From: an uncultured Candidatus Saccharibacteria bacterium
GTDB lineage: Bacteria > Patescibacteriota > WWE3 > UBA101185 > UBA10185
Direction of reading: 5' to 3'
Assembly (NCBI GenBank): GCA_964490125.1
Contig: CAZBAJ010000001.1
Span: forward strand, 152,243-216,242
Length of the DNA stretch: 64,000 bases
Shown: positions 3,852 to 53,677 of the stretch, piece by piece
Numbering within the stretch: the first letter of the stretch is position 1
Layout of the letters: each line of letters starts with the position of its first letter
Program-made: the position numbers and the translations under genes
Notes under the pieces: model-generated
Databases searched by the model: none
What the model was told of the DNA's origin: nothing
The model's input: the letters and a program-made list of their open reading frames with translations, nothing else

Positions 3852-4934
3852 ATGGAAATCCAACTTTTACACCTGTTTCTCTCGGCCTTAATTAGCTTGG
3901 CGCTTTACCCGCTCTGGATCAAGTTTGTTTATAAGTACCAAATGGGCGAGGATGTCCGTAGCGACGGTCCCCAAACCCATTTAGCCAAAAAAGGTACGCC
4001 CACTATGGGAGGTTTGGTGTTTGTGTTGACGGTTGGGATTGTAACTTTTTTAGTCAATCGATCGCGGGATCAAACCCTGTTTCCGCTCTTTGTGGCGGCG
4101 TTAGCGGGACTTTTTGGGCTTATTGAGGACTTGTCCAAAGTCTATAAAAAATCTGGCTTGCCAGGGTTTTTTGAATATCATCTGGGTACAATTAATCTGG
4201 GCAAAATAGGCAAAATACTTTCCACAGTCGTAGCAAAACCGTGGCGTCTTTACACAGAATTTTGGCGGGTGGTGGGCAGCAAAACAGATGTCGGCATAAA
4301 AACGCATGAAAAGTTTTTTATCCAAGCGGTTATTGCGGGTTTTGTGTCGTACTGGACTTATTTTAAGCTTGGTTGGGATTACATTTGGTTTCCGCTCGTG
4401 GGCGATGTGCACATTGGCTGGGGCTACCCCGTGGTAATTTTTTTGCTGTTTGTAGCGGTGCTAAACTTTGTGGCTTTTACGGACGGGCTTGATGGTTTGG
4501 CAGGTGGACTTGCCTTTTTTGCCTTATGCGCTTATTGGGTGCTGGCGGTTATGTTTGAATTTAAGTCGCTTTCTGCTTTTTGTGCCACATTTATTGGCGC
4601 GTTACTACCGTTTTTGTATTTTAATATCTATCCCGCGCGGGTGTTTATGGGCAATGTAGGCAGTCATGTTTTGGGGGCGACGCTGGTGTTGCTGGCTATT
4701 TTATTGCACCGCGAATTTGCTTTGGTAGTTATTTTGGGTGTGTTTTTGGTCGACGGGCTTTCTAGCCCTTTACAACAGCTTTCGGTAAAACTTACCAGAA
4801 AGCGGATTTTTTTAATGGCGCCTCTACACCACCATTTTGAGATGCTCGGCTGGCCGGAAACCAAAGTCACTTTTAGATTCTGGCTTTTTGGCATTATCTG
4901 CGCATTTTTAGGAATTTTTGTCGCCTTGTTGTAG
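3852..4934 (+). CDS. mraY: Phospho-N-acetylmuramoyl-pentapeptide transferase MraY
   Basis: MraY motifs are present (VRSDGPQTHLAKKGTPTMGG, TDGLDGLAGG) and the protein is polytopic. Confidence 0.9.
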   Translation: MEIQLLHLFLSALISLALYPLWIKFVYKYQMGEDVRSDGPQTHLAKKGTPTMGGLVFVLTVGIVTFLVNRSRDQTLFPLFVAALAGLFGLIEDLSKVYKKSGLPGFFEYHLGTINLGKIGKILSTVVAKPWRLYTEFWRVVGSKTDVGIKTHEKFFIQAVIAGFVSYWTYFKLGWDYIWFPLVGDVHIGWGYPVVIFLLFVAVLNFVAFTDGLDGLAGGLAFFALCAYWVLAVMFEFKSLSAFCATFIGALLPFLYFNIYPARVFMGNVGSHVLGATLVLLAILLHREFALVVILGVFLVDGLSSPLQQLSVKLTRKRIFLMAPLHHHFEMLGWPETKVTFRFWLFGIICAFLGIFVALL

Positions 4935-6123
4935 TCGCAAAATGAAAAAGTCTGCCCCAAAATCCCGCAAATTTTATTACTTTGTTTTAGCCACGCTACT
5001 TTTTGGACTTTTGATGGTCTACAACGCTTCACCTTTATACTCACAACGCTTGTTTGGCAATCCATATCATTTTGCCAAATTGCAGTTAATTTGGACTTTG
5101 GTGGGACTGGTTTTTTTTGCCATTGTCAGCCTGGTAAGTTTAAGTTCTATTAAATGGTTTTCCCGCGGATTATTTGTATTTTCCTTACTTATTTTAATTT
5201 TCCTTGCCGGAGCTTCCTTTTTTTACCCGTGTAGCAAGGTTTTGGGTCCTTCTTCCGATATTGCGTTTTGTCCCTGTAAAAACGGCGCTAGGCGTTGGAT
5301 AAATTTAAACCCACCACCACTACCACAACTGCCAATTTTAGGAACCTTAGGCTTCCAGGCGTCGGACTTGGCAAAATTAGCCCTTATTGCCTACTTACCC
5401 CTATTATTAGAATCAAAACTTAAGTCAGCCAAGCGCAAGTACTCGCCGTTTTTTTACTTTTTTGGCTATTGCGCACTGGTTTCGGTCCTAATTTTAGGTC
5501 AGCCCAACATGTCAACTGCAGGACTTGTTATGATAATTGGCGTAGTAATATATTTTATTTCCGGTGCGGACCTTAAGCCACTAGCTATTGCCATCCCAGT
5601 AGGACTTATTATTAGCATCTTATTTATTATGATCTCACCTTATCGGCGGGAGCGGTTTTTGACTTTAGTTTCGCCTAGCGAGCAGTCTACCTTAAAAGAG
5701 TCGTACCAGAGCGAACAAATTTTAATAGGACTTGGTTCTGGCGGACCTTTTGGCGTGGGCGTTGGGCAGTCTATTCAAAAGCAACACTATGTGCCGGAGG
5801 TTATTGGCGACTCGATTTTTGCCATTATTGGCGAGGAAATGGGTTTTGTGGGTAGTTTGATTGTAGTGGTGGGTTTTGCGCTTTTGACTTTGGAGATGGT
5901 CAAAATTTCTTCCGGCGCAGTTACTTTGTATGAAAAAATGGTTGGTATGGGTGTTTGCGCTTGGATTTTCTTTCAGTACCTAATAAACCTGTACGCTACA
6001 ATTAACATTATTCCGTTTACCGGTATGCCTATTCCGTTTATTTCTTACGGCGGTTCCTCTATGGTTTTTGCTATGGCGGGACTAGGGTTAATTTCTAATA
6101 TTTATAGACGACAGGGAAGCTAA
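4918..6123 (+). CDS. ftsW: SEDS family peptidoglycan glycosyltransferase FtsW/RodA
   Basis: SEDS motifs are present (PEVIGDSIFAIIGEEMGFVGS, IPFTGMPIPFISYGGSSM). It sits between mraY and murG. The start is probably Met 4942. Confidence 0.85.
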   Translation: MSPCCSRKMKKSAPKSRKFYYFVLATLLFGLLMVYNASPLYSQRLFGNPYHFAKLQLIWTLVGLVFFAIVSLVSLSSIKWFSRGLFVFSLLILIFLAGASFFYPCSKVLGPSSDIAFCPCKNGARRWINLNPPPLPQLPILGTLGFQASDLAKLALIAYLPLLLESKLKSAKRKYSPFFYFFGYCALVSVLILGQPNMSTAGLVMIIGVVIYFISGADLKPLAIAIPVGLIISILFIMISPYRRERFLTLVSPSEQSTLKESYQSEQILIGLGSGGPFGVGVGQSIQKQHYVPEVIGDSIFAIIGEEMGFVGSLIVVVGFALLTLEMVKISSGAVTLYEKMVGMGVCAWIFFQYLINLYATINIIPFTGMPIPFISYGGSSMVFAMAGLGLISNIYRRQGS

Positions 6124-45326: not shown

Positions 45327-46199
45327 ATGGTCAACATGGCAAATGGGGATGTTACGGAAAAGCACACACCAAGTCAGCAAGCTGGCGACCAAGATAGTTC
45401 CGCCAAGACATTACTTCTGTTTGTGGCAGGTATCTTGTTGGTGGGTTTTGTAGTTTTTATCGTTAGGGATAGCAATAGACAAAATAAATCGCAAGAAAAT
45501 CTTCTAGCAAGTCCACTTGAAGAAGTCCAAAAGTCCGATGAACTAAAAGAGGAGCCTTTAACAGAAGCAAGCACCGAACCTCTCTTGGAACCTTTAAGTG
45601 AGCCAAAAAGTGAGGCAACACCAAATTTAGAACGACAGGAGGCACAAAACATGAGCGACCAAAATTCAAAAGTAAAAATGACGGTGGAGCAAAAATTGGC
45701 AGTCCAGAAACCTACGGAAATGGTTGATTCAACCAAAAACTACACCGCAACATTTAAAACCAATATGGGCGACATTGTAATCGCTTTGGATGCTAAAAAT
45801 CGTCCCCAAACCGTCAACAATTTTGTGTACTTAGCCAACCTTGGTTTTTACGACGATGTAATTTTTCATCGCGTAATAGCTAACTTTATGATTCAGGGTG
45901 GGGATCCTTTAGGCATGGGAACGGGTGGTCCAGCCTACAAGTTTGCGGACGAGCTTTCTGCACCTAATTCTAACGCCAAAGGCACCATTTCTATGGCAAA
46001 TTCCGGCCCAAATACTAACGGCAGTCAGTTTTTTATAAATTTAGTCGACAACAATTATCTGGACGCTAAACATACGGTTTTTGGTAAGGTAACATCTGGT
46101 ATGGATGTGGTGGAGGCTATAGGTAAAGTCCAAACTGGTCAAAATGACAAGCCTCTTACCCCAGTCAAAATAGAGTCAATTGAGATAACTCAAGAATAA
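45327..46199 (+). CDS. Cyclophilin-type peptidyl-prolyl isomerase with an N-terminal TM anchor and an acidic low-complexity linker
   Basis: FHRVIANFMIQGGDP and MANSGPNTNGSQFFI are present. Confidence 0.85.
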   Translation: MVNMANGDVTEKHTPSQQAGDQDSSAKTLLLFVAGILLVGFVVFIVRDSNRQNKSQENLLASPLEEVQKSDELKEEPLTEASTEPLLEPLSEPKSEATPNLERQEAQNMSDQNSKVKMTVEQKLAVQKPTEMVDSTKNYTATFKTNMGDIVIALDAKNRPQTVNNFVYLANLGFYDDVIFHRVIANFMIQGGDPLGMGTGGPAYKFADELSAPNSNAKGTISMANSGPNTNGSQFFINLVDNNYLDAKHTVFGKVTSGMDVVEAIGKVQTGQNDKPLTPVKIESIEITQE

Positions 46200-46217
46200 T
46201 GGTTTAATTTTGGTGTC

Positions 46218-47153
46218 ATGATAGACGCAGTATTTTTTGCTCTTGCTTTAGTTGGTTTATGGATCGGTGCGGGCATTTCCGTTGGCGCTGTAGAAAAAGT
46301 CTCAAAATATCTAAAAATCTCCTCATTTTTTACCTCGTTCATTATTCTTGGTGGTTTAACCTCCGTTAGCGAGATTTCTGTTGCGTATTTTTCTATTGTC
46401 GACAAAACACCTACTATTTCCGTAGGTAATCTTATTGGCGCTTCTATTGTTCTTACGCTTTTTGCAGTACCCCTGTTAGCAATTTTTAATAAAGGGATAA
46501 AAATAGACGATCGTACCGAGCCGGTCAATTTTAATATTGCTTATCTTGTTATATCGTTGCCGGCACTGTTGATACTAGATAAAACTCTTAGCTTTTTTGA
46601 TGTTGGGGTTATGTTATGCTCTTTTGTTTTTTTAGGCGTCACTATGTCTACAAAAAGTACAGTTCTTGCAAAGCTGGAAGACGCTTTAACTCACCCTAAG
46701 ATAGACGCCATTAAAGAAGGCTTAAAAATTATTATGGGTGTTGGTATGATTATTCTTGCCAGCAAGTATATTGTTGATACTGCAGTTATTTACTCTGGTA
46801 GACTTGTGGTACCGCCTTTTTTAATTGGTGTACTGATTTTATCTTTAGGTACAAATTTACCGGAACTTTCCGTCCTAGTTAGGTCGACATTGGAGAAAAA
46901 GAAAAACATTGCACTAGGCGACTATGTTGGGTCGTCGGTATTAAACACGCTTACTATTTGCGGGTTAACAGTTTTTAATGGCGCCCCTATAGTATTAAAT
47001 GCCGGTCTTAAATTAAATTTGCTGATTTTACCCTTAGGCTCAACACTGTTTTTGTATATGACGCGAGATGGGCGGTTGGAAAAACGCGAGGGTTTTGTGT
47101 TACTGGCGTTGTATGTGCTTTTTGTAGTCTTGGAATTACTCCCCGTACTTTAG
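46218..47153 (+). CDS. Na+/Ca2+ exchanger (CaCA, YrbG-like) membrane protein
   Basis: Two alpha-repeat motifs are present (GNLIGASIVL; GTNLPELSV). Confidence 0.7.
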   Translation: MIDAVFFALALVGLWIGAGISVGAVEKVSKYLKISSFFTSFIILGGLTSVSEISVAYFSIVDKTPTISVGNLIGASIVLTLFAVPLLAIFNKGIKIDDRTEPVNFNIAYLVISLPALLILDKTLSFFDVGVMLCSFVFLGVTMSTKSTVLAKLEDALTHPKIDAIKEGLKIIMGVGMIILASKYIVDTAVIYSGRLVVPPFLIGVLILSLGTNLPELSVLVRSTLEKKKNIALGDYVGSSVLNTLTICGLTVFNGAPIVLNAGLKLNLLILPLGSTLFLYMTRDGRLEKREGFVLLALYVLFVVLELLPVL

Positions 47154-48206
47154 TAAAAACTCTGGGTTAATGACTTTAAAACTTATCCGACCTAAATCTT
47201 CATCCGTAGCCTCTTGTACAGACCTTACAACTACACCTTCCACCTCGGTTTCGGGTGCAATTACAGATTTACGGGTAGCGTAGGCAACCATGTCGTCCAC
47301 AGTTGGCAAAAGTTTAAAATTGTCCACCAAAAGCGGAACTACCGGAACTTCCAAACCTTTTATTGTCGCCACAAAATCCGCGTAAGGTAAAAACTTGCCT
47401 GCCTCAAAGTCGTAAACATTAAAAAAATAACAAGTGTGACCGTTAATTTTTAGCCGATTATTTTGAATATAGTCGCCCACCACCTCGCCTTGCAGGGCAT
47501 AAGGTTTGCCAAGAGCGCGTAATTTTTCCTCCAGTTTAAGCTCACGGGCTACCTGCCAGTAAGTATTTTTGTCGCTTTCTACAAGATCCAAACCCCGCGA
47601 GCACACATGAAACTCGTCGTCCTTAATAAAGACCGTCATAGAAGTACCGTCCAGCTTTTCCGTGACATAAAAAACCTTATCTTTGTGGCGGTCTAAAACT
47701 TGCGGGACGGCTTGGAGACGGATTTCGTCTGTTTTAGGAATGTACGACGGAAAAAGTCCGCGAGCCGTGCCTGAAAGACACGCCGGAATTGCAGGTTCGT
47801 ACTTAACTACGCCTAAAAGTGCGGTAACATCCAAGCCCTCTTTAAAGTCGTACACGGGCGTCTCCCTAGCGTCATTAGGATATTTTTTATTTTGTAAAAT
47901 TGACATGGGAAGACACAAACCCTGCGACACCTGCCCGCGAAGCTTTATGGTGCGCAAGCGGTAACCCTCGTACTCTCTACCGCCAAAATACGACTTTTTA
48001 ACCCCGCCTTTAGCCAAAAACTCAAAATCGGCTGTTACGGGGAGTAGGGAATCGATCTCAAAGTACACGCACAGGTCACCGGGCGCAAACTCGCCTTTTT
48101 TAACCACCACATGCCAGCCTAAAACCGTGGCGACTTCTATGGAATCCGCGCCTTCAATAGGCTTAAGGTCGACGATTTTTTGGATTGATGCAAGTTTTCT
48201 TTCCAT
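47136..48206 (-). CDS. ATP-dependent RNA ligase-like nucleotidyltransferase (KxDG motif) with an N-terminal OB-like domain
   Basis: TEKLDGTS (motif I lysine) lies after an N-terminal KIVDLKPIEGADSIEVATV OB-like segment. The architecture resembles Rnl5/DraRnl-type ligases, as far as I recall them. Confidence 0.55.
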   Translation of the reverse strand: MERKLASIQKIVDLKPIEGADSIEVATVLGWHVVVKKGEFAPGDLCVYFEIDSLLPVTADFEFLAKGGVKKSYFGGREYEGYRLRTIKLRGQVSQGLCLPMSILQNKKYPNDARETPVYDFKEGLDVTALLGVVKYEPAIPACLSGTARGLFPSYIPKTDEIRLQAVPQVLDRHKDKVFYVTEKLDGTSMTVFIKDDEFHVCSRGLDLVESDKNTYWQVARELKLEEKLRALGKPYALQGEVVGDYIQNNRLKINGHTCYFFNVYDFEAGKFLPYADFVATIKGLEVPVVPLLVDNFKLLPTVDDMVAYATRKSVIAPETEVEGVVVRSVQEATDEDLGRISFKVINPEFLLKYGE

Positions 48207-48261
48207 GGGAGGATTATAGCAAATTTGTTAGAGACCGGGATCTGCGTCCACTGATTATTAT

Positions 48262-48594
48262 TTACAGAGTTTTAAGAAGTCTAAATTTGACGATTTTTAC
48301 TAGTGTGTTTCCGTCTACCGGTTGATTGTAGTAACGGGAATAGTCGTCGTACATTTCTTGTTTAGAATTATATTTTTCATGACCCTCTAGGTCTTCCTCC
48401 GTCATGTTTTGTAAGGGTTTTTCTGTTACTTTTGTAAGCTCTGCCTCTGCGAAAGGAACAAGTTCTGGTCTTTTGATAAAAGTCACTAAATCCCCTGTGG
48501 TTAAATTTTTGTCGTCAAACAGCCTCCATGTGGTAGTTTTCTCGCCAGACAGGACTAATTCGACAAGATGGGGCATGAATTTAAGTGTTTTCAT
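48262..48594 (-). CDS. ASCH domain protein
   Basis: LSGEKTTTWRL (the GxKTxTxR ASCH signature) is present. Confidence 0.6.
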   Translation of the reverse strand: MKTLKFMPHLVELVLSGEKTTTWRLFDDKNLTTGDLVTFIKRPELVPFAEAELTKVTEKPLQNMTEEDLEGHEKYNSKQEMYDDYSRYYNQPVDGNTLVKIVKFRLLKTL

Positions 48595-49376
48595 ATCGTT
48601 ACATGCTTAAGTCGCTCAAAATTCTTACCTGGCTCAAGTCTAGTTTCTGCTAAAAATTCTTCCTCAACTGTTTCTGCAGAAAAAGCGTTTTTATGTTGTA
48701 ATAGCGCCTGTTTCTTTTTGTCGATATACTTTGTAATGTCAAAATGCAGAACATCTGGATAAGAATAAGAATCGGAAAACATCAGCTCGCTTACTGTGTG
48801 CGGGGTTAAGCCCGACTTACTAAAATGCTCTGGAAAAAATCCTCTGTCTCTGGAGTAGGGGTAAGACGAATCAAGCACAATTGACGCGACAGCCCGATGA
48901 TCCCTGTGGTTTACCCAATGGATGTCGTCAGAAAAAGTATTAATTGGATCAAACGGATTTTGAGTTATGATGATTTCCGGTTTAAATTGACGAATATGAA
49001 AAACAACCTTGCCGATATTTTCTAAAGTATTTTCCAATTCGCCGTCGGGAATGCCTAAATTAAACATTTCGTCTTCTCTAAGACCCAGCTCTTTACCGGC
49101 GGAAAACTGCTCCGCAACACGTATTTTGGCAAATTCAGCCTCGGTAACATCCGTTCGCTCTTGAAAACCCTTTCCACCGTCAGTCATAACTACAAGTCGT
49201 ACCTGCTTACCTTCGTCAAGTAGTCTTGCCACAATTCCACCGCAAATAATTTCGTTGTCGTCTGGGTGCGCCATAACAACAAGAACTTTTTGCTTGTCGC
49301 CAAATATTTTGTTAAAAGAGTCCTGTATTTCCATATTTCTTGGTTTTGGTGTCAATAATCCTTTATCTCGTTCCAA
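48591..49376 (-). CDS. PIG-L/LmbE family N-acetylglucosaminyl deacetylase
   Basis: VLVVMAHPDDNEIICGG (AHPDDE box) and the HxDH region (NHRDH) are present. Confidence 0.8.
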   Translation of the reverse strand: MERDKGLLTPKPRNMEIQDSFNKIFGDKQKVLVVMAHPDDNEIICGGIVARLLDEGKQVRLVVMTDGGKGFQERTDVTEAEFAKIRVAEQFSAGKELGLREDEMFNLGIPDGELENTLENIGKVVFHIRQFKPEIIITQNPFDPINTFSDDIHWVNHRDHRAVASIVLDSSYPYSRDRGFFPEHFSKSGLTPHTVSELMFSDSYSYPDVLHFDITKYIDKKKQALLQHKNAFSAETVEEEFLAETRLEPGKNFERLKHVTI

Positions 49377-49912
49377 TCGATTTCAAAATCTTCCCAAGGC
49401 GCTACCACGATGCCGTTAATTGTATCAGGATTTTGGCTGATTTTCTTTTCGCAAGTGCGTTTTCCGTAAAATATATGGTCGACATCTGGGAGATTTTCCA
49501 CCCCTTCTTCCAGCCACACTATAACCGCGTAAAATTTTGCGGTGGGAAAAAGCGGTTTTAAGTCGGTTATAGCCGATTTTAGAGTCGTGCCCGATGTTAA
49601 ACAGGAGTCGCAAATTAAAATATGCAAATCATCCGGTAACAGACGGGTTGTTTTTGGAATTTCTAATCGTTTTACTATTTTTCCTTGTTCGTACATGTAA
49701 TACACCGGCAAGGTTTCTTTAATCTCAAGTCGCGCTGCTATGTGATACGCCGGAAAAGCTCCGCTTCTAAGTAGCGGAACAACTAGGTTAAATTTTATGT
49801 TGTGGCCGACTTGGTAATCGTCTATTTGCTGGGTTAATAAATCCATAGTTTTGCCAAACTCGGCATAAGTTATTTGTACTAAATCATCTTTTTTGTACAT
49901 TCCCACGAGCAA
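49352..49912 (-). CDS. Phosphoribosyltransferase-like protein
   Basis: A PRPP-binding-like box ILICDSCLTSGTTL is present. Confidence 0.55.
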   Translation of the reverse strand: MLVGMYKKDDLVQITYAEFGKTMDLLTQQIDDYQVGHNIKFNLVVPLLRSGAFPAYHIAARLEIKETLPVYYMYEQGKIVKRLEIPKTTRLLPDDLHILICDSCLTSGTTLKSAITDLKPLFPTAKFYAVIVWLEEGVENLPDVDHIFYGKRTCEKKISQNPDTINGIVVAPWEDFEIDWNEIKDY

Positions 49913-49963
49913 ATTTTAGATCGTGCGGCGGTTTTTAAAAAGTTATTTGGATTGCTGTATCGA

Positions 49964-49990
49964 CTTGAGGTCGCAATTTGCGACTTCAAG
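49964..49990. promoter_or_regulatory. 27-bp palindrome cTTGAggTCGCAAtTTGCGActTCAAg (operator-like)
   Basis: An inverted repeat with one mismatch. It lies upstream of the PRTase operon. Confidence 0.5.
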
Positions 49991-50038
49991 TTTGCTTAGA
50001 AACGAGAATGCGCAAGACCTTTTTTAAATACCAACAGG

Positions 50039-50065
50039 TTTTGAAATCACAATTTGTGATTTCAA
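50039..50065. promoter_or_regulatory. 27-bp perfect palindrome tTTGAaaTCACAAtTTGTGAttTCAAa (same motif family)
   Basis: A perfect inverted repeat about 75 bp from the first copy. Confidence 0.5.
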
Positions 50066-50092
50066 AGTGTTAGCCTGATTTTTAGCGTAAAT

Positions 50093-51016
50093 CTACCCAA
50101 GTCGCCCCAAAATATCCAACGAGTTTTTGTCAAACTTAGAAACCGCGAACCACTTTTTACCCAAATCCTTTATCGACGCACCAAAATGGTACACATCTTT
50201 GTCGTCTACAATTAAAAATCTATCGTGCGACTGGTCAAACTCCTTAAGTTGTATGCTCCCGTATTGCTGGCTAAATTTTTGAACATCCAGCGTCGCCAGC
50301 TTTGTAATATTTTTAGTATAAATAATAAGCTCAACTCCGTTTTTTCTTTTGGTAAAAAGATCCAGTACGCTTTCGTCGATAAAGTTGTCGATTAGAACAA
50401 GCTTTTTATTGGCGGAACGGATGATTTTAGACACCAGCTTGTGCGCATCAAAAATCTGATTGTTGTAGAAAATTTTTTGGTGGGGAATTGAGTCTTTTGG
50501 GGACAACGCCTTAAAAACCTGGTCAAATTTTTTGTCAGTTTCCAGTTTATGCTCAAGTTGTTTTTGTTCGACGTTGTCAAGGCGGGCAAAGAGTTGAGCG
50601 TTTGACGCAACCATTCTTCGCATTTCTACAAAAGCGTTAATTATTCTTATGCTCATGTAGACTGCTACATCACTTTTTAAAACAGCGGAGAGCATTGCAA
50701 CCCCCTGCTCGGTAAAAACAAAGGGAGGTCGGGTTTTTCCACCCCGCTTTTCCTTTACATCCTTGTATGATGTGGTCAGATTCTTTGATATCGCAAATTG
50801 CGATGTCAAAAACTGATACTCCGGAGTTGTTAGCCGAAAGGAAAATTCCTCTGGAAACCTGTTTCGATTTCTCTTGACCTGTTCGTTCAACCTGTAAGTA
50901 GGTATTGTGTACAGTTTGGCCAGATCTGAATCCAGCATTACCTGCACCCCACGAATAGTGTAGATCTTACTTCTAATACCGCTAGATTCTATTAACTGAA
51001 GACTGCTGTTTTCCAT
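50093..51016 (-). CDS. ORF6N (KilA-N-like) domain DNA-binding protein with an uncharacterised C-terminal domain
   Basis: The N-terminus IYTIRGVQVMLDSDLAKLY...VKRNRNRFPEEF...FVFTEQGVAMLSAVLKSDVAV closely matches the ORF6N pattern. A third copy of the palindrome lies inside the ORF at 50786-50810. Confidence 0.75.
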   Translation of the reverse strand: MENSSLQLIESSGIRSKIYTIRGVQVMLDSDLAKLYTIPTYRLNEQVKRNRNRFPEEFSFRLTTPEYQFLTSQFAISKNLTTSYKDVKEKRGGKTRPPFVFTEQGVAMLSAVLKSDVAVYMSIRIINAFVEMRRMVASNAQLFARLDNVEQKQLEHKLETDKKFDQVFKALSPKDSIPHQKIFYNNQIFDAHKLVSKIIRSANKKLVLIDNFIDESVLDLFTKRKNGVELIIYTKNITKLATLDVQKFSQQYGSIQLKEFDQSHDRFLIVDDKDVYHFGASIKDLGKKWFAVSKFDKNSLDILGRLG

Positions 51017-51065
51017 TAAATTTTAGGCAGGGAAATCATCGTTCGCTCGACTTTATTTGCTATAT

Positions 51066-51140
51066 TGGTGAGGGCGGAGGGAATCGGACCCTCGACGAAC
51101 GGCTTAAAAGGCCGTCACTCTACCACTGAGTTACGCCCCC
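51066..51140 (-). tRNA. tRNA-Lys (anticodon UUU), CCA encoded
   Basis: Reverse-complement cloverleaf: acceptor gggggcg/cgccctc (one G-U pair), anticodon stem acggc/gccgt with loop ctTTTaa. Confidence 0.9.
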
Positions 51141-51208
51141 TCATAACCTGCCCATTATATTGAACCTGCCCTGTTATTTCAAGTCGTAAAACTATATACT
51201 TAAAATGT

Positions 51209-53677
51209 ATGACTGCCCAAACTGCCCAAGAAGACAAATCCGTAGGTAAAGATGAAGTAGGTTTAACCGCCGCGCAAGCCCAAGAAAACATTGCAAAATA
51301 CGGCGCCAACATTTTAGAGTCACAAAAACTTTCCGCGGTAAAAATTTTAGGTCGACAATTTAAGGGCAACTACCTAGTCTACATTTTAATAATATGTACG
51401 GTTGCATCCTTTGCTTTAGGTGAGCGAGTAAGCTCCTTATACATTTTTGCCATGATTTTTGTAAGCGCTGGACTTGGTTTTTGGAACGAGTATTCTGCCC
51501 AAAAAACTGTAGAGCGACTGTTAAAACGCATCACGCCAAAAGTTACGGTTAGACGGGACGGGGTTGACCAAGAAATATTGTTGACTCAAATCGCGGTGGG
51601 CGACGCGGTGCTGTTTTCCACCGGTAGTGTAATTCCAGCGGATTTACAAATTCTCCAGGCGGAAAATTTAGAAGTTAATGAAAGTGTGTTGACTGGAGAA
51701 AGTGAGCCGGTAGTTAAAAAGCCTGGCGACGCTATGTACATGGGCACAAATGTAGAAAGTGGACACGGTTTGGGTTTGGTGACACAAGTAGGTAAACGCA
51801 CAAAATACGGAGAAATTGCCAAAAGCATTAACTTTTTAAAACCGGAGACTTCCTTCCAAATAGGTTTACATAGTTTTGGAAATATGCTGGTAAAAATAAT
51901 ATTTATTTTGGCTGGCGCAATCTTTTTAGTTAACTCCGCTTTAGGTAAGGATTTTCTTTCTAGCCTAATGTTTGCTTTAGCAATTGCGGTTGGTCTAACA
52001 CCGGAGCTTTTGCCAGTGATAGTGACTTTAAGCTTGTCGCACGGGGCAGGAAAGCTTGGCAAAAAGTATGTAGTAGTTAAACAGTTGGTTGCCGTAGAAA
52101 ATTTGGGTAATATGGACATTTTATGTTGCGACAAGACCGGAACGCTTACAGAAGGCAAAATAGAAGTAACTGATTATTTTGATGGCCAAGGTCAAAAGAG
52201 TCTAAAAGTGTTAGAAAAAGCGTTTTTAAGCGTGCCTAAAGGCGTCCAACAAAGCGCTAGTTTGGATAAAGCTATAGTTCAAATGGCGCAAAAAGCGGGA
52301 ATTCCTAAAAGCCTGGGGGTTGTATCTTATTTGGACAGTGAAGCCTTTGACTACAACAAAAAAGCCTCGTTCAACGTGGTTAAGTTTGAGAGCGTGACGC
52401 ATTTTTTGGTTAAGGGTGTGTTTGAAGATGTGGCTAGAATGTGCGACTTAAGTTTAGGTCAAGTAAATCTAAAGGATTTGCAAAAAAAGGTGGACATGTT
52501 GGGGATGCGGGGATTTAGGGTTATTGTTCTAGCTGGCAAAACACTAACGGCAAAAACATCCGGCGAATACACTTGGGATGACGCAAAAAACTTGCAGCTA
52601 CATGGCTTTTTAGTTTTTTCTGACGCGCCCAAAAAAGACGCTAAAAAAGCTCTAGACCGACTTGAGAAGCTAAATGTCGATTTAAAAGTGCTAACCGGTG
52701 ATAACGAAATTGTTGCCCTTAAAGTTTGCGCGGAGGTTGGACTTGCGGTAAAAGGTGTAATTCTAGGCGAGCGATTAGCAAAATTAACTGAAGCGGAGCT
52801 TGCAACCGCGGTACTTAACAACAATATTTTTGCCCGAGTAACGCCGGAAAACAAATTGGCAATCATTAAAGCTCTAAGAAATGCGGGTCATACTGTGGGT
52901 TTTTTGGGCGACGGTATAAACGACGCGCCCGCCCTGCATACCGCGGATGTTGGTATAAGCGTGAACACCGCATCTGATGTAGCAAAAGACTCCGCGTCTG
53001 TAGTGTTAATGCGGGGCGGGCTTGATGTGATTGCGGAAGGTGTTGTAGAAGGCAGGCGGATTTTTAACAACACCATAAAATATATTCTAATGGGAACAAG
53101 CTCTAATTTTGGTAATATGTTTTCCGCAGCTTTTGCGTCGTTTGTCTTGCCGTTTTTGCCCATGACGCCGGTTCAAATATTGCTAAACAATACTTTATAC
53201 GACTTTTCCCAGCTTACTATTCCGTCCGATAATGTAGACAAGGAATCGTTGTTAAAGCCCAGACACTGGGATATAAGCTTTATTAAAAAATACATGCTCT
53301 TTTTTGGACCTATTAGCTCGCTGTTTGATTTTATTACCTTTTTCTTTTTAATTTTGGTATTTAAGGCAACATCTGGGCAATTTCAAACAGGCTGGTTTTT
53401 AGAGTCGCTCTTAACCCAGACATTAGTAATTTTTGTCATTAGAACGGCTAAAACTCCGTTTTGGAAGTCCGCACCCGGTAAATTGTTGATAATGTCCAGT
53501 GTTGTCGTGCTTGGAGGCGCCTTGGCGATTGTCATCCTTCCGTTAAGGGCGTCGTTTGGGTTTGAATCGCTCCATTTGGGTTATGGCGCCTTCCTGCTAG
53601 TCGTCCTGCTAAGTTACATGCTGCTGGTGGACGGATTAAAGCGCCAATTTATAAAAAAGTTTAAGATTTGGAATTAG
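51209..53677 (+). CDS. P-type cation-transporting ATPase (Mg2+/Ca2+ type)
   Basis: CDKTGTLT, TGDN and GDGINDAPAL motifs and ~10 TM helices. Confidence 0.9.
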   Translation: MTAQTAQEDKSVGKDEVGLTAAQAQENIAKYGANILESQKLSAVKILGRQFKGNYLVYILIICTVASFALGERVSSLYIFAMIFVSAGLGFWNEYSAQKTVERLLKRITPKVTVRRDGVDQEILLTQIAVGDAVLFSTGSVIPADLQILQAENLEVNESVLTGESEPVVKKPGDAMYMGTNVESGHGLGLVTQVGKRTKYGEIAKSINFLKPETSFQIGLHSFGNMLVKIIFILAGAIFLVNSALGKDFLSSLMFALAIAVGLTPELLPVIVTLSLSHGAGKLGKKYVVVKQLVAVENLGNMDILCCDKTGTLTEGKIEVTDYFDGQGQKSLKVLEKAFLSVPKGVQQSASLDKAIVQMAQKAGIPKSLGVVSYLDSEAFDYNKKASFNVVKFESVTHFLVKGVFEDVARMCDLSLGQVNLKDLQKKVDMLGMRGFRVIVLAGKTLTAKTSGEYTWDDAKNLQLHGFLVFSDAPKKDAKKALDRLEKLNVDLKVLTGDNEIVALKVCAEVGLAVKGVILGERLAKLTEAELATAVLNNNIFARVTPENKLAIIKALRNAGHTVGFLGDGINDAPALHTADVGISVNTASDVAKDSASVVLMRGGLDVIAEGVVEGRRIFNNTIKYILMGTSSNFGNMFSAAFASFVLPFLPMTPVQILLNNTLYDFSQLTIPSDNVDKESLLKPRHWDISFIKKYMLFFGPISSLFDFITFFFLILVFKATSGQFQTGWFLESLLTQTLVIFVIRTAKTPFWKSAPGKLLIMSSVVVLGGALAIVILPLRASFGFESLHLGYGAFLLVVLLSYMLLVDGLKRQFIKKFKIWN

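Follow-up and report, generated by a model that had tools for sequence, protein, structure and literature searches.

A 25-nt palindrome embedded in ORF6N genes and found beside them, at an apparently mosaic tRNA-Lys locus of a Candidatus Saccharibacteria bacterium

The first gene after tRNA-Lys in a 64-kb stretch of DNA from an uncultured Candidatus Saccharibacteria bacterium (contig CAZBAJ010000001.1; the whole stretch is hereafter the window, and coordinates are window positions) encodes an ORF6N-domain protein, and carries inside its coding sequence a 25-nt palindrome, of which two further copies lie in its 3′ flank. Comparison with other loci (L-numbers) and homologous proteins (P-numbers) from bacteria, archaea and phages showed that this branch of ORF6N genes has the palindrome as an intrinsic element at the level of the nucleic acid: the coding sequences contain one to three in-frame copies, which specify the peptide L-[RK]-S-Q-[IF]-[AV]-T-S, and the copies found in the flanks travel with the ORF6N gene. 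It is moderately probable that the locus as a whole is a mosaic assembled after tRNA-Lys, in which the palindrome is a putative cognate site of ORF6N, and the four enzyme genes that follow, encoding a phosphoribosyltransferase (PRTase), a PIG-L/LmbE-family deacetylase, an ASCH-domain protein and an RNA ligase (Rnl), are a set that is not conserved.

Within the window, the pattern TTGANNTCRCAANTTGYGANNTCAA occurs exactly three times, against 0.01 expected, and none of 100 shuffled sequences reached three, which bears out the view of the initial annotation that the motif is too conserved to be chance. All three copies lie at the ORF6N locus, with none elsewhere in the 64 kb, so that the alternative raised at the same time, a dispersed repeat unrelated to the locus, was rejected for the window. 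As single-stranded DNA hairpins, the three sites have folding energies of -10.1 to -10.6 kcal/mol (z -4.7 to -5.8). A scan of 46000-52000 against Rfam returned the tRNA only, with no family at the palindromes, and none of the window copies was called in a scan for intrinsic terminators, their flanks being without T-runs.

The internal copy encodes FLTSQFAISK, the same type of motif as is obtained by translating the intergenic copies, which on both strands read (N/D)L(K/R)SQ(I/F)ATSS (49965-49989) and (T/V)LKSQ(I/F)VISK (50041-50065). Over 33 nt, the first of these shares 97% identity with the palindrome inside the ORF6N gene at L011, and one homologue, P0107, has a further peptide copy at its C-terminal tail (DNLKSQIATSSRY) that is identical to the window’s intergenic reading. 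Decayed fragments of an ORF6N pseudogene were considered as the source of the intergenic copies and rejected, as similarity ends at the palindrome and the copies are perfect or near-perfect. In an AlphaFold2 (AF2) model of the protein, the internal copy corresponds to residues 69-77, at or just before a loop of low confidence (75-93; predicted local distance difference test, pLDDT, <50).

The genome sample comprised 80 bacterial and archaeal loci, selected by ORF6N protein similarity. In most of these, L011 and L303 among them, the position and sequence type of the palindrome are those of the window’s internal copy, and of 56 strong palindromes within genes, 51 are found 180-240 nt into the match. 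The family alignment contains one to three tandem copies of the peptide, with a period of 12-13 codons. Where sites were picked by nothing but the peptide pattern (64 sites), the arms are complementary at 10.83 of 12 positions, compared with 5.47 of 12 after shuffling of synonymous codons, and the codons are locked: glutamine is CAA in 63 of 64 (background 0.67), alanine GCG in 13 of 13 (0.12), valine GTG in 31 of 34 (0.22), and serine TCA or TCG in 46 of 46. Codons of the inner arms covary, in the combinations TCG..GCG (S..A), TCA..GTG (S..V), TTC..GGA (F..G), TGC..GGC and TAC..GG[CT], as do those of the outer arms (TTG-A..TCA-A, TTA-A..TTA-A, TGG-A..TCC-A and TTG-C..GCA-A). Among 58 unique sites, compensatory double changes were found in 11 of 15 pairs; doubly changed cells numbered 118, compared with 44±5 in shuffles (0/500 reaching the observed value), and the covariation score was 0.373, compared with 0.05-0.10 for slid controls. 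Positions -6/+6 (T/A) and -3/+3 (C/G) are invariant in all taxa sampled, and -2/+2 (A/T) nearly so.

Of 28 distinct viral ORF6N genes, again selected by protein, 25 carry the palindrome (171-449 aa, with varied C-termini). A distant ORF6N paralogue without the SQ..TS motif (L057 3989-4537) has no palindrome at that position. Curated plasmid records label the host genes of the palindrome “ORF6N domain-containing protein”. No description of the element was found in a search of freely accessible literature.

The symmetry of the element is a property of each site. Where sister sites in one genome have differing left arms (n=326), a site’s own right arm is complementary in 81% of cases and its sister’s right arm in 7%. 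Such own-arm complementarity in every copy points either to pairing within the site, as a hairpin or cruciform, or to mutation that makes the arms symmetric, for instance template switching at quasi-palindromes, and argues that the sites are not the product of a simple operator with consensus half-sites. The arm variants are not the product of coding constraints, as a viral contig (L167, 4389-4525; IMGVR_UViG_3300038345_000118) contains three self-complementary variants (TAC..GGC, TCG..GCG and TCA..GTG), spaced 53-59 nt apart in an array-like arrangement in non-coding DNA. The invariant core positions argue for sequence-specific recognition besides pairing. A hairpin in the sense RNA is not supported, as G:T mismatches on the sense strand are not favoured over A:C, numbering 22 against 15 in one count, and 21 against 38 at arm positions 2-11 of 109 unique sites.

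Taking the genome loci and the window together, 88 of the 105 palindromes of this family type lie within ORF6N coding sequence and 17 outside, most of the latter no more than 180 nt from the end of an ORF6N gene (Table 1). Palindrome density within 200 nt of ORF6N gene ends is 29-fold that beyond, and copies in the immediate 5′ or 3′ flank occur in roughly one locus in eight. The downstream copies of two Legionellaceae loci, L057 and L080, at +37 and +36, are equivalent to the window copy at +43, and the L057 pair resembles the window pair. The genes next to flank copies differ every time, and include DUF6817, DUF3987, SDR and an Eco57I-type methylase, among others. The specific link between palindrome and ORF6N gene that had been proposed is therefore upheld, both by the copies that ORF6N genes of many phyla contain and by flank copies beside them. 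The companion proposal, that the copies are an operator set for the PRTase operon, did not survive: the element flanks ORF6N genes beside unrelated genes, and in the sister loci L011 (ORF6N by ASCH-GNAT-PRTase) and L303 (ORF6N by Rnl) the internal copy is the only one, with no intergenic copies. Among the PRTase-bearing relatives L006-L013, sites are absent except within the L011 ORF6N gene. Near some ORF6N genes a second class of palindrome was also seen, with a related core and other outer arms or spacing (e.g. AACTGTCGCAAATTTTGCGACAGTT and AACTGGTCACAAATTGTGACCGGTT).

A pattern scan of viral contigs matched at least 120 stretches, and 83 sites were analysed. Among the matches listed, 41 of the 83 are in short ORF6N-domain open reading frames (ORFs) without a phospholipase D (PLD) domain, and 42 are outside any ORF6N frame, six of these 45-50 nt from an ORF6N ORF. 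The free-standing copies in these matches are mostly intergenic and near gene boundaries, where they adjoin genes for gp32-like, tape measure, connector, NUMOD4-HNH, NinG, resolvase and type IV secretion system (T4SS) coupling proteins; no constant partner gene was found among the matches listed. In three related phage contigs (L112 3114-3150, L159 2265-2300 and L169 2682-2720), a 239-aa ORF ends 16 nt before the palindrome, a T-run comes directly after it, and a gene for a gp32-like single-stranded DNA-binding protein lies downstream; these copies look like intrinsic terminators.

The protein itself had been taken for a simple regulator. Modelling and profile searches show it instead to be a three-part protein of the PDC-S05 type, in which a long helix, probably the means of dimerisation, connects an ORF6N DNA-binding domain to a PLD-like domain. 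Pfam places ORF6N (PF10543, 105.8 bits) at residues 16-112, and the PADLOC model PDLC04869, for the phage-defence candidate PDC-S05, matches end to end (E 2.5e-118, residues 5-304 of 307). In the AF2 model (pLDDT 73.9), the ORF6N domain (10-113) and helix (116-171) are followed by an alpha/beta domain (181-305), for which Foldseek returned NucT (6ehi, E 5.4e-5), Nuc (1byr), Zucchini and PLD3, indicating a PLD-superfamily fold; the best whole-chain match is TrmBL2 (5bpi, E 3.5e-5). A sequence search of the PDB returned nothing for this protein. The family alignment has an invariant motif, H264-D-R266-x4-D271-x7-G279-A-S281-x-K283-D284, in which, compared with the canonical PLD HxK(x)4D(x)6GSxN, Arg266 replaces Lys, and nuclease activity is only putative.

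At least 8000 homologues of the ORF6N protein were found. Identity to the window protein is about 51-78% for the best 120, whose labels include Bacteroidetes, Ignavibacteria, Arcobacter, Deltaproteobacteria, Woesearchaeota and Nanoarchaeota; the 80 genome loci extend the range by many further phyla, and such breadth indicates horizontal mobility. Some relatives are in defence contexts: at L030 (603-8341), with a palindrome copy 135 nt upstream, the ORF6N-PLD gene lies between one for a PLD + SNF2/ResIII helicase (1080 aa) and one for an Eco57I/MmeI-type methylase (1126 aa). One PDC-S05 representative reportedly protected E. coli, lowering the plating of T7 and T5 about 1000-fold and that of T4 about 10-fold, and was described with a Virulence_RhuM domain (bioRxiv 10.1101/2024.09.26.614923), which differs from the window protein in that Pfam detected no Virulence_RhuM in the latter at E<=0.01. 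No mechanism or cis-element for PDC-S05 was described in the searchable literature. The ORF6N homologue of L303 (2722-3641), which neighbours the closest relative of Rnl, appears to be frameshifted towards its 3′ end, as tblastn gave two segments that are not in the same frame; it may be a pseudogene or an assembly error.

The layout that had been reported for the locus, with four packed minus-strand genes, the ORF6N gene and the adjacent tRNA-Lys, was recovered in full by ORF listing and ARAGORN (Table 1), and the domain calls (OB + RNA_ligase, ASCH, PIG-L, Pribosyltran and ORF6N) stand in Pfam and NCBIfam searches. A metagenome-assembled contig, Logan SRR8925812, matches the window, and both the gene content and the taxa of the homologues suggest a small-genome bacterium of the CPR/Patescibacteria. 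The G+C content of the locus (0.415) is close to that of the window (0.42), and co-transcription of the four enzyme genes is probable. At its 3′ end (47136-47153) the Rnl gene shares 18 nt with the 3′ end of a Na+/Ca2+ exchanger gene that runs towards it on the plus strand (46218-47153). A scan of the minus strand of the ORF6N-PRTase spacer (49913-50092) turned up no sigma-70-like promoter, promoter rules in this lineage being uncertain. Inside the ORF6N gene (50780-50809, minus strand), the internal palindrome starts with TTGACA, which together with AAGAAT 18 nt downstream scores as sigma-70-like (10/12), and may be a coincidence or an internal promoter.

Table 1. Features of the window locus, and palindromes near ORF6N genes at comparison loci (offsets in nt; those of second-class palindromes are from the ORF6N match)
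Feature	Position or offset	Strand	Remarks
Rnl gene	47136-48206	minus	ORF listing
ASCH gene	48262-48594	minus	110 aa; 4-nt overlap with PIG-L gene
PIG-L gene	48591-49376	minus	likely start 49355 (254 aa), favoured by gene callers
PRTase gene	49352-49912	minus	gene callers favour ATG at 49900 (182 aa)
Palindrome copy, ORF6N 3′ flank	49965-49989	strand-neutral	11/12 arm pairs; 119 nt past ORF6N stop
Palindrome copy, ORF6N 3′ flank, upstream of PRTase	50041-50065	strand-neutral	perfect, 12/12 arm pairs; 43 nt past ORF6N stop
ORF6N gene	50093-51016	minus	307 aa; first gene after tRNA-Lys
Palindrome copy inside ORF6N coding sequence	50785-50809	strand-neutral	encodes L-T-S-Q-F-A-I-S; begins 207 nt from start codon
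tRNA-Lys (UUU; gene anticodon ttt)	51066-51140	minus	ARAGORN; Rfam tRNA 68 bits
Downstream flank copies	L057 +37/+124; L058 +88/+150; L080 +36; window +43/+119		
Upstream flank copies	L060 -177/-40; L030 -135; L055 -38; L067 -57; L091 -140		
Second-class palindromes	L056 -1294; L073 -158; L033 -1720; L063 +203; L050 +2086		

The four enzyme genes had been put forward as a PRTase/LmbE/ASCH/RNA-ligase module, and a survey of gene neighbourhoods showed no co-occurrence of the four outside the window species, the window gene order being repeated only in the same-species contigs L003-L005. A 76%-identical syntenic relative (L006-L009) has the same flanks, with a P-type ATPase and tRNA-Lys on one side and a peptidyl-prolyl isomerase (PPIase) and RRM protein on the other, and carries CTP_transf_like - PRTase - PIG-L - NTPase_I-T - 290 aa protein in the interval, with no ASCH, Rnl or ORF6N. 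Elsewhere, PRTase - PIG-L precede a HepT/MNT pair (L010), SLATT - GNAT precede PRTase - PIG-L (L012), and L011 reads tRNA-Lys - ORF6N - ASCH - GNAT - PRTase. PRTase followed by PIG-L is the sole recurring pair of the four genes, and is found in five lineages, with PIG-L directly after PRTase in the window species and in L006-L009, L010, L012 and L013; a PIG-L deacetylase always follows PRTase in the contexts observed. Gene order thus identifies PRTase and PIG-L as a conserved pair, to whose chemistry the nucleotide-metabolism genes beside it in L006 are the sole hint.

The other two genes have separate histories. ASCH homologues neighbour GNAT (L011 and L214), NUDIX (L216 and L220) or unrelated genes (L218); Rnl and PIG-L are absent beside them in the sampled loci, as is PRTase in L214, L216, L218 and L220. 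None of 80 metagenome Rnl loci (38-84% identity) has ASCH, PIG-L or PRTase homologues, the closest reading tRNA-Lys - ORF6N - Rnl - RRM (L303) and ORF6N ... Rnl - PPIase - RRM (L302), and none of the 80 ORF6N genome loci or of 159 viral ORF6N/palindrome loci has any of the four enzyme genes. These neighbourhoods indicate that the four genes are a lineage-specific mosaic and not a conserved pathway, in which ASCH and the Rnl5-type ligase appear to be independently shuffled accessory genes; the four-gene operon by itself is ordinary.

The interval from tRNA-Lys to PPIase/RRM is, to judge from these comparisons, a mosaic insertion hotspot. The relatives L006, L011, L214 and L303 keep the tRNA-Lys and carry different genes beyond it. 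The suggestion that the tRNA gene is an integration hotspot gained support from L214, where the intact tRNA-Lys (1817-1891) is followed 3 kb downstream by a 62-nt partial copy (4910-4971, 97% identical), the two bracketing five genes (HD - CN_hydrolase - PNPOx - ABM - GNAT). This insert has the att-like signature of an integrated element and contains no integrase; no such repeats were found in the window, and L214 is the only relative with one. In the same variable neighbourhood lie genes of conflict type, namely an MNT/HepT pair (L010 2398-3025), a CopG-type toxin–antitoxin pair (L011 861-1419) and SLATT_4 (L012 684-1235), suggesting that the hotspot gathers accessory and defence genes.

Each enzyme could be assigned to a family, and PADLOC has no model matching any of the four. 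Rnl is predicted to be an ATP-dependent RNA ligase of the Rnl5 (DRB0094/NgrRnl-like) type with an N-terminal OB domain: Pfam identified OB (PF21189, residues 5-101) and RNA_ligase (PF09414, residues 179-346) domains, the TIGR02306 equivalog cut-off was exceeded (197.7 vs 151.15 bits), and the protein aligned end to end with NgrRnl of Naegleria (5cot, E 7.8e-60), with the lysine nucleophile motif KxDG kept (tEKLDGTS against tvKLDGSS). Homologues are present in 346 phage records. It thus shares with the nick-sealing Rnl5 ligases NgrRnl and DraRnl the order of OB and nucleotidyltransferase domains, the full-length alignment to NgrRnl and the KxDG motif; no difference was detected at the sequence level, and its ASCH/PIG-L/PRTase context is lineage-specific.

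The PIG-L protein (PF02585, 93.2 bits vs cut-off 28.2) is a predicted metal-dependent deacetylase of the PIG-L/LmbE family, with metal-binding motifs AHPDDNEI (HPDD) and NHRDHRA (H-x-D-H) in alignment with Dac (8bgn), an archaeal diacetylchitobiose deacetylase that is its nearest solved relative (E 4e-17). Assignment as a bacillithiol or mycothiol deacetylase (BshB1, BshB2, MshB or Mca) was rejected, as all scored under their cut-offs (best BshB1, 78.2 vs 182.5 bits). The PRTase (PF00156 Pribosyltran, 29.2 bits vs cut-off 26.3) has a conserved phosphoribosyl pyrophosphate (PRPP)-loop-like sequence, ILICDSCLTSGTT, and its AF2 model (pLDDT 84.6) has 1vdm (E 3.6e-10), HGXPRT and XGPRT as its best Foldseek matches, which suggests a divergent type I phosphoribosyltransferase with a 6-oxopurine-PRTase-like fold. 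A PDB sequence search gave no match to any solved relative, and homologues are rare, with nine close ones and, at E<=1e-3, 92 cluster representatives among 1.84 billion proteins, of which 33 reach E<=1e-10. The ASCH protein (PF04266, 41.7 bits vs cut-off 21.2), with about 340 homologues in candidate phyla radiation (CPR) and DPANN genomes, is probably a generic ASCH-domain protein; identity as a YqfB-type N4-acetylcytidine amidohydrolase was rejected (NF003443, 17.6 bits vs cut-off 93; 1te7 only at E 0.88).

In the reading considered moderately probable at the outset, the ORF6N domain would recognise the element as its cognate site, a symmetric dimer binding either the extruded hairpin or cruciform or a duplex whose symmetry is maintained by template-switch correction. 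A mobile gene would in this way carry a portable means of self-recognition or an autoregulatory circuit; the two spacer copies would be ORF6N’s own 3′-flank copies, and any effect on transcription into the PRTase operon would be incidental. Binding of the motif by ORF6N is plausible. Several observations weigh on the other side. About 36 of the 83 viral palindromes, among the matches listed, have no ORF6N gene in the sampled stretch, which implies that the element can exist apart from the gene. The per-site symmetry is unlike that of a simple consensus-half-site operator, and a structure-level or mutational explanation is needed in addition, while the position of the internal site 207 nt into the ORF is unusual for autoregulation. 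As no promoter was found in the spacer, transcription may run on from ORF6N into the PRTase operon, on which the hairpins could then have an effect; the presence of ORF6N beside ASCH-GNAT-PRTase (L011) and Rnl (L302 and L303) in sister species could likewise reflect a local functional link.

A bolder form of this proposal is tentative and, on balance, unlikely. Here, the ORF6N domain would bind, by structure as well as sequence, a DNA hairpin or cruciform encoded in its own gene, protein and site forming one cassette across bacteria, archaea and phages; PLD-fused PDC-S05 proteins would be steered to hairpin-bearing invader DNA, and the Pfam ORF6N motif L-[RK]-S-Q-[IF]-[AV]-T-S would be largely a by-product of DNA-level selection. 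That a nuclease-like domain might be aimed at invader DNA is suggested by the free-standing copies being common in phage intergenic regions.

It is quite unlikely that the palindrome is a selfish or neutral miniature element without gene function, inserted in frame in a tolerant ORF6N loop and in the intergenic DNA of mobile elements in the manner of Rickettsia palindromic elements (RPEs). Several features would suit such an element: the copy number of one to three with its period of 12-13 codons, the low-confidence loop just past the first copy, the same peptide from either orientation, the free-standing phage copies beside many different genes, and the clustered differing variants in the non-coding DNA of L167. 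Its codon position is nevertheless shared by nearly all members of the family, archaeal to proteobacterial, with the core T-6, C-3 and A-2 invariant across domains of life. Among the viral matches listed, no copy was seen in the frame of another protein family, those outside ORF6N being intergenic or in short, implausible ORFs, and there was no sign of terminal repeats, target duplications or an accompanying transposase.

The idea that ORF6N is a transcription factor, with the palindromes as operators of the PRTase/LmbE/ASCH/RNA-ligase operon and the operon as a novel module for RNA repair, RNA modification or signalling, is now very unlikely. It accounts for the two copies between ORF6N and PRTase, the tight packing of the enzyme genes on one strand, the association of ORF6N with ASCH-GNAT-PRTase in L011 and with Rnl in L302 and L303, and a domain layout (DNA-binding domain, helix and PLD-like domain) that TrmBL2-like regulators also have. 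Against this stand the lack of intergenic copies in L011 and L303, the flank copies of ORF6N in Legionellaceae, Neomarinimicrobiota, Lentisphaeria and others beside unrelated genes, the lack of four-gene co-occurrence around PRTase and ASCH relatives, the 80 Rnl loci and the 80 genome and 159 viral ORF6N/palindrome loci, the absence of a PADLOC match for the four enzymes, and a spacer in which nothing promoter-like was found.

An RNA hairpin in the ORF6N transcript, acting in mRNA stability, processing, termination or translational pausing, is very improbable too. Nearly all copies in cellular genomes are in the ORF6N ORF or within about 180 nt of it, and so could be on its mRNA, and a few phage copies followed by a T-run are terminator-like (L112, L159, L169, L094 and L129), but G:U-compatible mismatches are not favoured on the sense strand (the 21 G:T against 38 A:C above), and the window copies have neither T-tails nor an Rfam family match. 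A recombination or cleavage site for the PLD-like domain or a host recombinase, serving shuffling, cassette insertion or hairpin formation and having its symmetry regenerated mechanistically, is extremely improbable, since the PLD-like fold with its invariant HxR..D..GxSxK, the individual symmetry of each site, and the location of the spacer palindromes at the edge of the PRTase-PIG-L-ASCH block that the window has and L303 lacks, are set against the absence of a PLD domain from most palindrome-bearing viral ORF6N genes, of any rearrangement junction mapped to a palindrome, and of a recombinase gene in the window region.

It emerges that a 25-nt DNA palindrome dictates a conserved peptide motif in a widespread Pfam domain, its codons locked and its amino acids covarying in compensation, in both prokaryotic domains and in phages. 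This is a caution for the analysis of protein families, as conservation in a coding region can stem from selection at the nucleic-acid level. It also provides a defined candidate DNA ligand, and with it a handle on the mechanism of ORF6N/KilA-N-type proteins and of PDC-S05, both without a known target, and removes a false lead, in that the PRTase/LmbE/ASCH/RNA-ligase cluster does not appear to be a new RNA-repair or signalling pathway.

Among known systems, RPEs, which Ogata and colleagues reportedly found in 2000 to be inserted in frame in protein-coding genes, are similar in being palindromic DNA within an ORF, translated as an extra segment in a tolerant surface region, with the nucleic-acid property and not the peptide conserved. 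RPEs are 100-150 bp long and scattered through many unrelated genes of one genus, whereas the ORF6N element is 25 nt long, fixed in position in one gene family of bacteria, archaea and phages, and shows compensatory covariation at each site. Controller (C) proteins of restriction-modification systems and their C-boxes, like other autoregulated mobile toxin or nuclease genes, combine a dimeric DNA-binding protein and palindromic sites on one cassette, allowing self-contained regulation after transfer, as is proposed for ORF6N. However, C-boxes lie upstream, in the promoter, and consist of consensus half-sites that are not individually self-complementary, with binding demonstrated, while the ORF6N element lies within the coding sequence, its sites are individually self-complementary and binding is only proposed.

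Sequence-specific recognition of DNA hairpins is a feature of REP/RAYT, IS200/IS605 ends and integron attC sites, which resemble the ORF6N element as short imperfect palindromes with covarying pairing, intergenic dispersal and a tie to one protein family; the ORF6N element differs in lying inside the ORF of its partner gene, with no mobility footprint seen, and no HUH/Y1 transposase or integrase gene was found in the window region or the sampled flanks. TrmB/TrmBL2 regulators have a DNA-binding domain, long helix and PLD-like C-terminal domain in common with the window protein, whose N-terminal domain is ORF6N (KilA-N-like) and not a winged helix; with a whole-chain rmsd of 18 Å and no sequence similarity, domain order alone is comparable. 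Compared with both in-frame palindromic elements and cassette operators, what is apparently undescribed here is a palindrome that keeps to one place in a single gene family in different domains of life, whose arms covary site by site and which dictates what had passed for a conserved protein motif.

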